Below are positions 25,544 to 27,900 of a stretch of DNA of 32,000 nucleotides, one piece after another. Source of the stretch: Candidatus Baldrarchaeota archaeon (GTDB lineage: Archaea > Asgardarchaeota > Baldrarchaeia > Baldrarchaeales > DXJG01); assembly GCA_019056805.1 (NCBI GenBank), contig DXJG01000004.1, forward strand, positions 60,001-92,000, given 5' to 3'. The position numbers and the translations under genes were made by a program. The notes beneath the pieces were generated by a model. That model saw nothing but the letters and a program-made list of their open reading frames with translations, was not told the origin of the DNA and made no database searches. Each line of letters begins with the position of its first letter. Position 1 is the first letter of the stretch.

Positions 25544-25585
25544 TGTAGGATATTTTATCCTACAATATGAAAATCAATATTTATA
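25544..25585 (-). promoter_or_regulatory. TATA box (25578-25585) and perfect 21-bp palindrome (25544-25564) upstream of the ECF operon
   Basis: TGTAGGATA-TTT-TATCCTACA; minus-strand TATAAATA about 28 nt upstream of the palindrome centre. Confidence 0.6.
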
Positions 25586-25705
25586 CTTTACGATCAAGAA
25601 AAATCTACGATAACCTGTAATTTTTCCAGAATGTTAATAGCATCAAGTTATAATATCCAATAAAAAAAATAGGAGATTAAGATTTCGAATCCTACGTCTT
25701 AGAAG

Positions 25706-26644
25706 TTACGTTACATTGTCTTGAAATGTAAATGAGAGTTCTCCGACACCTTGTATGTTCGTCCTAACATCTATCCTATGAATCCCCGAAGGTAATTTTG
25801 TTCCGCTAACCATAATTGTCATTTTATCGTTTTCTTTAAATGTTAACGGATTTGAAAACGATATATCGCTGGATTTTACTTCTTTGCCACCAATGTTGAT
25901 ATATGTTGCGTTAACATCCATTAATATCCCGTCTACTTTCAATTCTATTGGTGCTATGAGTACAACGTCCCCAACATTGTTGTGGAATGTTAGTTCAAAT
26001 CCGTTTTTAACGTTTTTTAGTGTTCCAGGTACATATATTCTTGAAATAATTGCTGGCATCATTGTTCTGACTGTTTCTGGAATTATTACAGGAGGAACTG
26101 ACATCATCTGAGGGATTGTTGGTTGAGGCGGCTTTGCCTCTGGAACTTTTGGAACTTCACTTACTGGTTCCATACTTCTTAACCTAGCAAAGTCTATAAT
26201 TATTGATATTTCCTTACCAACAGAGATCTTTGCAGAAATAAAATCAGGATTTTCTGGTAAATTAATCGTACTTCCTATGGTTTCTATATATCCTTGTGGA
26301 ATAGTATCACTCCACCTTTTTAGGAGAGCAGCTATTTCTTTTCCCTTCATATCCTTCTTAATGGGTTCAAAAGTAGCTCTGTATGTGCGTCTTTCAACTT
26401 CGTATGCTGCTCTCCAAAGAGCACCTTCAATTCCACCGTACATTGCCCCTTTTGCAACTCTAGCGACACTTGCGACAGTTTTCAATAACCCAAATCCACC
26501 TTTTTTCTTTGCTCTAAAAGTGAATTTATAATTTCCCTCTCCATGCCCTGGTTCTAACAACTCGTCTACATGATAGGTAGAATTGTCGTTTTTCATTTTT
26601 TCAGCTGCTTCATTCAGTTTCTTAGCTAATTCCTCAACTCTCAT
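25706..26644 (-). CDS. Hypothetical two-domain protein with a Pro-rich linker and a beta-sandwich-like C-terminal domain
   Basis: Long ORF; linker EPVSEVPKVPEAKPPQPTIPQMMSVPPVIIP; C-terminal RIYVPGTLKNVKNGFELTFHN...LKVDG. Confidence 0.7.
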   Translation of the reverse strand: MRVEELAKKLNEAAEKMKNDNSTYHVDELLEPGHGEGNYKFTFRAKKKGGFGLLKTVASVARVAKGAMYGGIEGALWRAAYEVERRTYRATFEPIKKDMKGKEIAALLKRWSDTIPQGYIETIGSTINLPENPDFISAKISVGKEISIIIDFARLRSMEPVSEVPKVPEAKPPQPTIPQMMSVPPVIIPETVRTMMPAIISRIYVPGTLKNVKNGFELTFHNNVGDVVLIAPIELKVDGILMDVNATYINIGGKEVKSSDISFSNPLTFKENDKMTIMVSGTKLPSGIHRIDVRTNIQGVGELSFTFQDNVT

Positions 26645-26651
26645 AAAGACT

Positions 26652-26728
26652 TCCCCTATTCATCAATTATGAATGCTAAGAAGGGAGTATATCTCCCCTC
26701 TCAGCACTCAAGACAATAGGGAGCATTC
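26652..26728 (-). promoter_or_regulatory. Structured 5' leader: 18-bp hairpin plus anti-RBS pairing
   Basis: Arms 26670-26687 and 26693-26710 pair fully on the minus strand (15 Watson-Crick, 3 G-U); 26715-26722 is complementary to the RBS region 26653-26660. Confidence 0.6.
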
Positions 26729-26871
26729 TTATCTAAATAGTGGGTTTAAAGTCGTATTTAAATTTTGCTTTATCTAAATGAAGAATTAAATTTTGAACCT
26801 AAAATAGGGCTTCGCTAAAAACAAGTGATCAATCCTAATGATGAAAAATTATTAAATATTGTTAGTAAAAT

Positions 26872-27900
26872 CTATTTCTTCCTTATAGTTTGTCTAAAGT
26901 CTCCAAGAATTGCTGAGGGTGGAGGTAGATCTATCATTGTAACAAGACCTGGTTTTGCTTTAAGAACTCGTGGAATCATGTTAACAACCATTGCAACCGT
27001 TGCTAAATCCCCTGGAGTTCCCATACTATTCCTCCAATGTAACCTTGGATTACCTTCTATTACAACTTCTTCGTAATCTTCAGCTCCCACAGCAGCTACA
27101 AGCTCCAATTTAATAACCTCCTCCCCATTAATATATCCTAGTCCTAATCCTCGTATTCCAGCAACCTCTCCAGGCTTCACCTTAAAATACTCCGTTTCTA
27201 AGGTTTTTTCAGCAATTACTGGTTCTTGAACCTCTTCAATTTTATCAATTTTCCACCCTAAAGCAGTGGCGACTAACATAATTGATTCAGCATAACCTAC
27301 ATGAGCTGTAATTTCTCCAGCATCAAGCTTCCGCTTAAACTCCTCTGGACTAAGACCCAAGCCAATTTTCTTTTGAAAAGAATATCTACGTTTTGCAGCA
27401 TCAAGAGATCTTACAGCTTTTATATTTTCAACGGTTTCGCAAACCCCGGTAAAAGTAGCAACTAAAGTATCAAATATGAAACCAGGATTCACGCCAGATC
27501 CTAGCACAGTTACACCATACTCTTTAGCCAACTTATCCAATTTTTCACTAAGCTCTGGATATCTGTAGTATGGATAAGCCAAAGTTTCACACGTGGAAAT
27601 AACGCTTGAGCCAGCTTTAACAGCTTGAACTATTTGAGGATATACTTTGTCTAAGTAAGAGCCGGTGGCATGCAATGTTATATCTGGCTTACTTTCAGAA
27701 AAAACTAAGGAAGCATCACTGGACACTACGACACCTAGTTTTTCTTCTAACCCCAAAATGTCTCCAAGATCTCTACCAACTTTTTCAGGAGAAACATCTA
27801 TGGCTCCAACAATCTCAATACCCTTTTTTGCGAGTATAAATTTAGCTATACGAACTCCTATAGCTCCAACACCATAAATAACAGCACGTACATTTTCCAT
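26872..27900 (-). CDS. 2,4-diaminopentanoate dehydrogenase (Ord)-like NAD(P)-dependent amine dehydrogenase
   Basis: IYGVGAIG Rossmann motif, GSGVNPGF, HVGYAESI, GDLATVAMVVNMIPRVLKAKPGL..MIDLP. Confidence 0.8.
   Translation of the reverse strand: MENVRAVIYGVGAIGVRIAKFILAKKGIEIVGAIDVSPEKVGRDLGDILGLEEKLGVVVSSDASLVFSESKPDITLHATGSYLDKVYPQIVQAVKAGSSVISTCETLAYPYYRYPELSEKLDKLAKEYGVTVLGSGVNPGFIFDTLVATFTGVCETVENIKAVRSLDAAKRRYSFQKKIGLGLSPEEFKRKLDAGEITAHVGYAESIMLVATALGWKIDKIEEVQEPVIAEKTLETEYFKVKPGEVAGIRGLGLGYINGEEVIKLELVAAVGAEDYEEVVIEGNPRLHWRNSMGTPGDLATVAMVVNMIPRVLKAKPGLVTMIDLPPPSAILGDFRQTIRKK

Follow-up and report, generated by a model that had tools for sequence, protein, structure and literature searches.

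A covarying stem-loop in the predicted mRNA leader of a rare Asgard archaeal gene, a candidate cis-acting element

RESULTS

Locus of the 312-aa orphan protein gene

The window analyzed in this study is a 32,000-nt stretch of DNA from Candidatus Baldrarchaeota archaeon (assembly GCA_019056805.1, contig DXJG01000004.1, positions 60,001 to 92,000). On its minus strand, a gene for a 312-aa orphan protein (25706..26644) lies directly downstream of the leader described below. The upstream gene (26872-27900) encodes an Ord-like 2,4-diaminopentanoate dehydrogenase, and the next gene downstream is ECF-S-like, with its own TATA box and palindrome. This palindrome (25544-25585, minus strand) is perfect, has 9-bp arms and a 3-nt center, sits in the stretch from a TATAAATA box to the beginning of the ECF-S-like gene, and is unrelated in sequence to the leader hairpin. 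A T8 run, likely an archaeal terminator, is located 37 nt past the stop codon of the 312-aa gene (25662..25669, minus strand), and T-runs were found soon after the stop codon in most homologues with readable downstream sequence. The T8 run and the separate TATA box and palindrome of the next gene make the 312-aa gene look monocistronic.

The 312-aa protein has no name in any source examined. It consists of an N-terminal domain, a Pro-rich linker, and a C-terminal beta-sandwich. AlphaFold modeled residues 1-157 as an alpha/beta domain with pLDDT > 90 outside a 40-residue Gly/hydrophobic loop, which is a low-confidence region in the models. Neither of the fold searches with the N-terminal domain gave a clear match; Foldseek had no hit at E ≤ 0.001, and VIA reached a Z of 4.3 at best. 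The C-terminal domain (Pfam PF25653) resembles the beta subunit of C-glycoside deglycosidase (8qvc_B; Z 13.5, rmsd 2.6 over 114 residues). No known RNA-binding fold was recognized in the confidently modeled parts of the protein, which is not evidence against binding. The gene family is rare, being present in 15 of the 400 Asgard genomes searched. Stand-alone genes for the N-terminal domain (~150 aa) occur in Sif- and Borr-archaeota, without the hairpin leader.

The surroundings of the gene differ among lineages. In Njord-like loci, the upstream neighbor is a tRNA or a divergently transcribed gene, and the downstream genes are convergent. As the neighbors vary, the hairpin described below belongs to the 312-aa gene. 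An earlier, sequence-only reading of this DNA had named a 3'-end stem of the Ord-like transcript as one case that would refute a leader element. This possibility was checked and removed, because the upstream neighbors differ among lineages and the hairpin stays with the downstream gene when they change. In the window, neither a terminator-like site nor a T-run was found after the stem. A vitamin riboswitch, suggested by the link to ECF-S-like and DUF4430 genes, was rejected because these genes follow the 312-aa gene in Baldr-like genomes only and because the ECF-S-like gene has its own TATA box and palindrome.

Two homologous loci are irregular. At L051 (2957-3895; identical to L021 and L063), from a Baldrarchaeota metagenome-assembled genome (MAG) of the same genus, the 312-aa orthologue is broken near residue 145 by a TAA and a shift of frame. 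The hairpin in the leader of this interrupted gene forms a perfect palindrome of 12 bp, and ~1.7 kb between the Ord-like gene and the leader contains opposite-strand candidate ORFs of 162 and 272 codons. At L058 (1653-2933 of Ga0180301_10043876; also in protein P0019), ~129 N-terminal residues of the Ord-like protein continue in frame with residue 2 of the 312-aa protein. The two are joined at a short peptide of similar sequence, and the intergenic region is absent together with the hairpin. L058 represents either an assembly chimera or a natural deletion/fusion.

Predicted promoter and boundaries of the leader

The TATA-like box TTTAAATA, claimed in the sequence-only reading, is present at 26762-26755 on the minus strand, 52 nt before the hairpin, and agrees with the generic archaeal TATA pattern at 8/8 positions. 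Judging from the sequence, this box is probably part of the promoter of the 312-aa gene. The usual archaeal spacing between TATA box and start would place transcription initiation at ~26733 (minus strand, within a few nt), which would give a leader of ~88 nt and put the hairpin within the mRNA. All 16 leaders that carry the hairpin (see below) have a TATA-like box 33-64 nt upstream of it, and in the Njord-like leaders the box also matches at 8/8 positions and lies 41-44 nt before the hairpin. As placed from these boxes, which are easily found by chance in AT-rich spacers, the hairpin would begin 3-34 nt into the predicted transcript. This distance is 3-10 nt in a deeply divergent clade and 16-34 nt in Baldr-like leaders.

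The Shine-Dalgarno (SD) motif AGGGG is located at 26657-26653 on the minus strand, eight nt before the ATG at 26644. In the genome as a whole, the frequency of SD-like motifs upstream of ORFs has a sharp maximum at -16 to -9, so that an SD-led leader is normal for this organism. A 16-codon upstream ORF (26676-26726, minus strand) has its AUG ~7 nt from the predicted start and its UAG inside the 3' arm of the hairpin. The idea of a conserved upstream ORF was rejected, since this ORF has no SD and is absent from related leaders; it is probably a chance occurrence.

Structure of the leader hairpin in the window

The central stem pairs 26710-26693 with 26687-26670 on the minus strand in 18 uninterrupted base pairs, with a loop of 5 nt (26692-26688). 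Three of the pairs are G·U on the sense strand, and the same positions are A·C on the opposite strand. The stem, its loop, and this asymmetry had all been noted in the sequence-only reading and were found as described, and the structured sense-strand leader that it proposed between the TATA-like box and the start codon was supported. The 5' arm (26693..26710) is purine-rich, and its conserved core (26705-26698) is common to 15 other leaders. The 3' arm (26670..26687) is pyrimidine-rich, with its conserved core at 26683-26675. The apical loop (26688..26692) is not conserved; the loops of the relatives are 3-8 nt long and unrelated in sequence. The stable hairpin stops ~12 nt upstream of the SD.

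The minimum free energy (MFE) of the 102-nt leader was -42 kcal/mol, compared with -22.8 ± 3.2 kcal/mol for 200 dinucleotide shuffles (z = -6.0), none of which was equally stable. The opposite strand folded to only -26.9 kcal/mol, and shuffled leaders contained a 12-bp stem in ~1% of trials. The hairpin alone reached -29.6 kcal/mol. Both strands of the 1.92-Mb assembly were scanned for uninterrupted stems of at least 11 bp, and among the 620 found this hairpin ranked first. It is also the only one of the 10 most stable hairpins of the assembly that directly precedes a gene. Of the next most stable hairpins, one (G000:C9:83848-83897) has a 21-bp stem and is intergenic, with over 500 nt separating it from the next ORF on its strand; the other (G000:C15:33728-33772) is a 19-bp perfect palindrome within a 423-codon ORF.

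The hairpin occurs once in its own genome according to DNA-level searches and searches with a covariance model (R1) built from homologous leader hairpins, which found the window site and no second copy. R1 gave 16 extra matches in 150 Asgard genomes, all inside coding frames. These were judged to be chance matches, and the idea of a repeat or regulon was rejected. A comparison with Rfam, which had been proposed as a check, identified no family: Rfam 15 gave nothing relevant for 26300-27100 at a permissive E-value, nor for six homologous loci at the gathering score. No consistent copy or complement of either arm was found past the stop codon that would indicate pairing between the 5' and 3' untranslated regions.

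Conservation of the hairpin in Asgard leaders

Searches with the leader DNA in its own genome and 40 relatives returned only chance matches of 15-29 nt, and BLAST found no similar leader in the 40 relatives. Since DNA searches were fruitless, homologous leaders were reached through the protein. Homologues were gathered by protein search only, from Asgard genomes, GenBank MAGs, JGI metagenomes, and Logan/ENA assemblies. In 16 distinct leaders of the 312-aa gene, counting that of the window, a hairpin with 9-18 uninterrupted base pairs was found: 5 Baldr-like, 7 Njord-like, and 4 from the deeply divergent clade. These 16 sequences represent ~5-6 lineages of uncultured organisms. The only interruption among the 16 stems is a single-nucleotide bulge in L030. 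Once three gene calls that were too long had been corrected, 23-34 nt separate the end of the hairpin from the start codon in 13 of the 16 leaders, compared with 33-38 nt in L030 and 44-46 nt in L066 and L067.

About 10 other homologous leaders lack any hairpin, which indicates that the element is dispensable. The hairpin is present on both sides of the deepest split in the protein tree, and 2-4 gains or losses are required to explain its distribution.

Covariation and the conserved lower stem

MAFFT did not bring the full set of 16 stems into register. They were therefore compared in a pair table whose anchor, set by hand and script, was the G-C/C-G base, and the tool-based covariation count was limited to 7 sequences in register. 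In these 7 sequences, 96% of cells pair, compared with 33-54% when the partner arm is slid, and 6 of the 12 pairs are changed on both sides. The covariation score was reached by none of 500 shuffles. Covariation among homologous leaders, which had been suggested as a check, was thus detected, with compensatory changes in half of the pairs. In the anchored table of 16 leaders, a non-standard pair occurs only in the degraded base of L092.

Beyond complementarity, the lower stem keeps its sequence character. Pair 1 is G-C in 10 of the 16 leaders and pair 2 is C-G in 14, and an optional U-A pair follows. In pairs 4-10, the purine is always in the 5' arm and the pyrimidine in the 3' arm, while A-U, G·U, and G-C interchange. 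The conserved lower stem is thus of the GCUAGAAG/CUUCUAGC type, in which 5-7 purine(5')-pyrimidine(3') pairs come after G-C, C-G, and the optional U-A. The upper stems and the 3-8-nt loops are unrelated between lineages; the upper stems are nevertheless always complementary. These results indicate that the leader very probably contains an RNA hairpin that has been selected.

A candidate site for a trans-acting protein

The arrangement most consistent with these results is a cis-acting stem-loop, read by a protein, in the leader of the monocistronic 312-aa mRNA. Taken as a whole, we regard this statement as evenly poised between right and wrong; the protein-bound operator mechanism, which we infer, is more tentative and falls somewhat short of that. 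In such a mechanism, a single 9-18-bp helix upstream of the SD would serve as a sequence-specific site for a trans-acting protein, which could be the product of the 312-aa gene itself or another RNA-binding protein. The bound protein, sitting beside the ribosome-binding site (RBS), would tune the translation and/or lifetime of one mRNA, as autogenous leader operators do. In the window genome only, the hairpin would also cap a longer stem whose lower end is paired with the SD, which would keep basal translation low and would not amount to a ligand- or fold-switching device.

Two findings are those expected of an operator: the hairpin belongs to the leader of one gene and shows compensatory changes, and sequence positions are kept beyond the needs of pairing (pairs 1-2 and the polarity of pairs 4-10). 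A lower stem constrained in both sequence and polarity is the signature of a site for a trans-acting factor rather than of a mere stabilizer. The position of the hairpin just 5' of the SD would suit control of translation initiation and/or mRNA decay. Other points speak against an operator. Ending ~12 nt before the SD, the hairpin alone need not block the ribosome, and its loop is unconserved, unlike those of many protein-recognized hairpins. The models of the product show no recognized RNA-binding fold, and about 10 homologous leaders do without the hairpin.

The hairpin could instead be a passive element that sets constitutive expression, either as a 5'-proximal stabilizer against exonucleolytic decay or as a spacer or insulator of the RBS. 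The loop and the upper stem are free to vary and the stem length ranges from 9 to 18 bp, as if stability alone mattered; the deep-clade hairpins lie very close to the predicted 5' end, and no partner protein was found. However, a pure stabilizer has no need of a conserved lower-stem sequence or a strict polarity, and both persist in lineages whose proteins share only 33-55% identity. Moreover, the Baldr-like hairpins are far from the predicted 5' end for a 5' protector. We therefore consider a passive role improbable.

Strand asymmetry of the wobble pairs

The inverted repeat could also act at the DNA level, as an operator that binds a dimeric transcription factor just past the start site, with the RNA hairpin as a by-product. 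The binding sites of archaeal repressors are often located across or downstream of the start site, and this general tendency would fit an inverted repeat near a promoter. The half-site is conserved and the repeat is perfectly palindromic in several lineages (L051, L062, and L099), and a further palindrome lies in front of the next gene of the window.

The wobble pairs argue otherwise. All 9 independent interior non-Watson-Crick pairs are G·U or U·G on the sense strand, with no A·C and no other mismatch, an outcome expected about once in 500 under a symmetric double-stranded DNA site. Where wobble pairs occur, the antisense strand folds 4-11 kcal/mol more weakly (cases with a strand difference above ~2 kcal/mol). 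That all are G·U and none A·C points to RNA and not to a DNA operator. Furthermore, the repeat is uninterrupted up to its 3-8-nt center, and its inner part differs by lineage yet remains complementary, which a protein-DNA site does not require. The center would lie at about +15 to +45 from the predicted start, and no transcription-factor gene travels with the repeat. A DNA operator is accordingly a doubtful explanation, with little probability. The sequences thus argue that the hairpin is gene-specific, selected as a helix, and selected on the transcribed strand, as RNA rather than a double-stranded operator, and this supports the reading as an RNA stem-loop.

Predicted masking of the ribosome-binding site

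The sequence-only reading had gone further and proposed that the leader masks the RBS and switches between two folds. The 8-bp outer stem on which this idea was based is present: 26722-26715 pairs with 26660-26653 (minus strand) and covers the SD AGGGG. Its 5' arm (26715..26723) was seen as an anti-RBS in the window genome only. The predicted pair probability of the outer stem dropped from 0.98 at 37°C to 0.82 at 80°C, and the SD was accordingly paired, with P(unpaired) of 0.03 at 37°C, 0.13 at 80°C, and 0.29 at 90°C. Among 161 SD-led genes of this genome, whose median is 0.41, the value at 37°C ranks at roughly the 4th percentile.

In most homologous leaders, by contrast, the SD was as open as that of an average gene (P(unpaired) 0.4-0.8), with values of 0.58-0.77 in L051, L060, L099, L103, and L054. 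The outer stem was not seen in the closest relatives, and L092 was the only homologous leader with an SD masked like that of the window. RBS masking is therefore upheld for the window genome but not as a conserved trait. From the folding models, it is best seen as a lineage-specific add-on that is predicted to lower basal translation.

The segment 26722..26728 (minus strand), proposed to form the competing helix, is indeed a perfect 7-nt complement of 26677-26671, but the helix was not predicted to form. Forcing it gave -27.6 kcal/mol against an MFE of -45.6 kcal/mol, a cost of ~18 kcal/mol, and its pair probability was ~0 from 37 to 90°C. Because the competitor is never populated in the ensemble, the proposal of two alternative folds was not borne out. 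A riboswitch was likewise not supported: what is conserved is one uninterrupted helix, no ligand pocket in the form of conserved unpaired nucleotides or a junction was found in the loops and flanks of the 16 leaders, and no Rfam family matched. Nor do the data fit an RNA thermometer, since the outer stem is still 82% paired at 80°C and the SD is mostly unpaired in homologues.

Two relatives have additional hairpins. In L046 (2970-3003, plus strand; Njord-like), a second hairpin of 13 bp with four wobble pairs extends over the SD and start codon (TTG) and has 7 nt in common with the main 3' arm. This is possibly an isolated hint of mutually exclusive pairing in that lineage only, and not a family feature. 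In L048, a smaller hairpin lies over the SD and does not overlap the main hairpin.

A leader that changes between two states, with the RBS masked in one and free in the other (a riboswitch, an RNA thermometer, or similar), could draw on the ~0.97 probability of a paired SD in the window, unusual for this genome, on the masked SD of L092, on the overlap in L046, and on the gradual melting of the outer stem with temperature. Against these observations stand the unpopulated competitor at all temperatures tested, the open SD of most homologues, the missing ligand site and Rfam family, and the fact that the conserved hairpin never includes the SD or the start codon. We consider such a switch very improbable.

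Other ideas were discarded or found no support. RNase III-type processing is unlikely, because a search of the 91%-complete assembly detected no RNase III domain (PF14622). An SD-mimic or anti-SD function was not supported, as in some lineages the 5' arm does not resemble an SD; 16S rRNA, which bears on this idea, is absent from the assembly. A SECIS element for selenocysteine, prompted by a published study (PMC11227280), was rejected because the window ORF has no in-frame stop and the helix has no internal loop. In-frame TGA was absent from all homologues with a full-length match and occurred only in fragmentary, multiply broken G003 matches.

DISCUSSION

In this study, a stem-loop that very stably folds, covaries, and stays with one gene was found in the leader of a rare Asgard gene family. 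To our knowledge, few cis-regulatory RNA elements have been validated in archaea. A literature search found no description of a covariation-supported cis-regulatory mRNA element for Asgard archaea, which among archaea are those most closely related to eukaryotes. The nearest archaeal precedent is the k-turn leader bound by L7Ae. The stem-loop in the 5' leader of archaeal L7Ae mRNA forms a k-turn in the protein's own message, for which translational control has been proposed (PMC5539422; PMC6298567). That element has a 3-nt bulge and tandem G·A pairs, and it folds only upon protein binding (PMC5539422; PMC6298567). The hairpin described here resembles it as a gene-specific stem-loop in an archaeal mRNA leader close to the translation start. 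Unlike the L7Ae element, the helix is uninterrupted, very stable alone, and without G·A pairs, and is therefore not a k-turn. The gene also differs, since as far as the model shows its product is not a ribosomal or RNA-binding protein.

Protein occupancy of a leader hairpin decides ribosome access at the MS2/R17 coat-protein operator and at the iron-responsive element (IRE). In both, recognition depends on a conserved loop or bulge, and the start codon is part of the MS2 operator. The Asgard hairpin is similar to these systems in being a single leader hairpin with some sequence-specific positions, although protein binding is putative here. It is dissimilar in that the loop is unconstrained, the lower stem is the conserved part, and the SD and start codon lie outside the hairpin. 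Bacterial 5' stabilizer stem-loops such as the ompA leader act by structure alone, a few nucleotides from the 5' end. Like the ompA leader, the present hairpin is a stable helix that lies 5' of the SD and close to the (predicted) 5' end of a monocistronic message. It differs from that leader by its conserved lower-stem sequence and polarity and by a predicted 5'-end distance that varies from 3 to 34 nt. Sequestration of the SD in a leader helix, as in riboswitch platforms and the ROSE and fourU thermometers, applies to the window genome only. In contrast to those elements, there is no conserved aptamer, alternative pairing, or SD masking, and the conserved helix is too stable to melt.

The more exciting reading of this locus is thereby corrected, since the evidence supports neither a riboswitch nor a conformational switch. 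The significance of the finding is bounded: it concerns a simple hairpin in front of a gene of unassigned function, and its mechanism is inferred. Within the known cis-regulatory leader stem-loops, the hairpin is a candidate for a new motif, and it is confined to a rare gene family of Asgard archaea. It might, though this is unlikely, be the operator of an unrecognized RNA-protein regulatory pair in Asgard archaea, read through a purine/pyrimidine-polar A-form helix and not through the loop. The partner in such a pair would possibly be the 312-aa product itself, with its N-terminal domain that gave no fold match, and the pair would control the translation of one mRNA, much as an IRE or an autogenous leader operator does.

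The target gene is worth attention in its own right, as it encodes a rare orphan protein whose N-terminal domain gave no match in the fold searches. The locus is a compact, testable candidate, with a helix of 30-40 nt, a defined conserved core, and a single target gene. About six lineages provide natural compensatory variants, and the hairpin-less orthologues would serve as natural controls for the role of the hairpin in this family.
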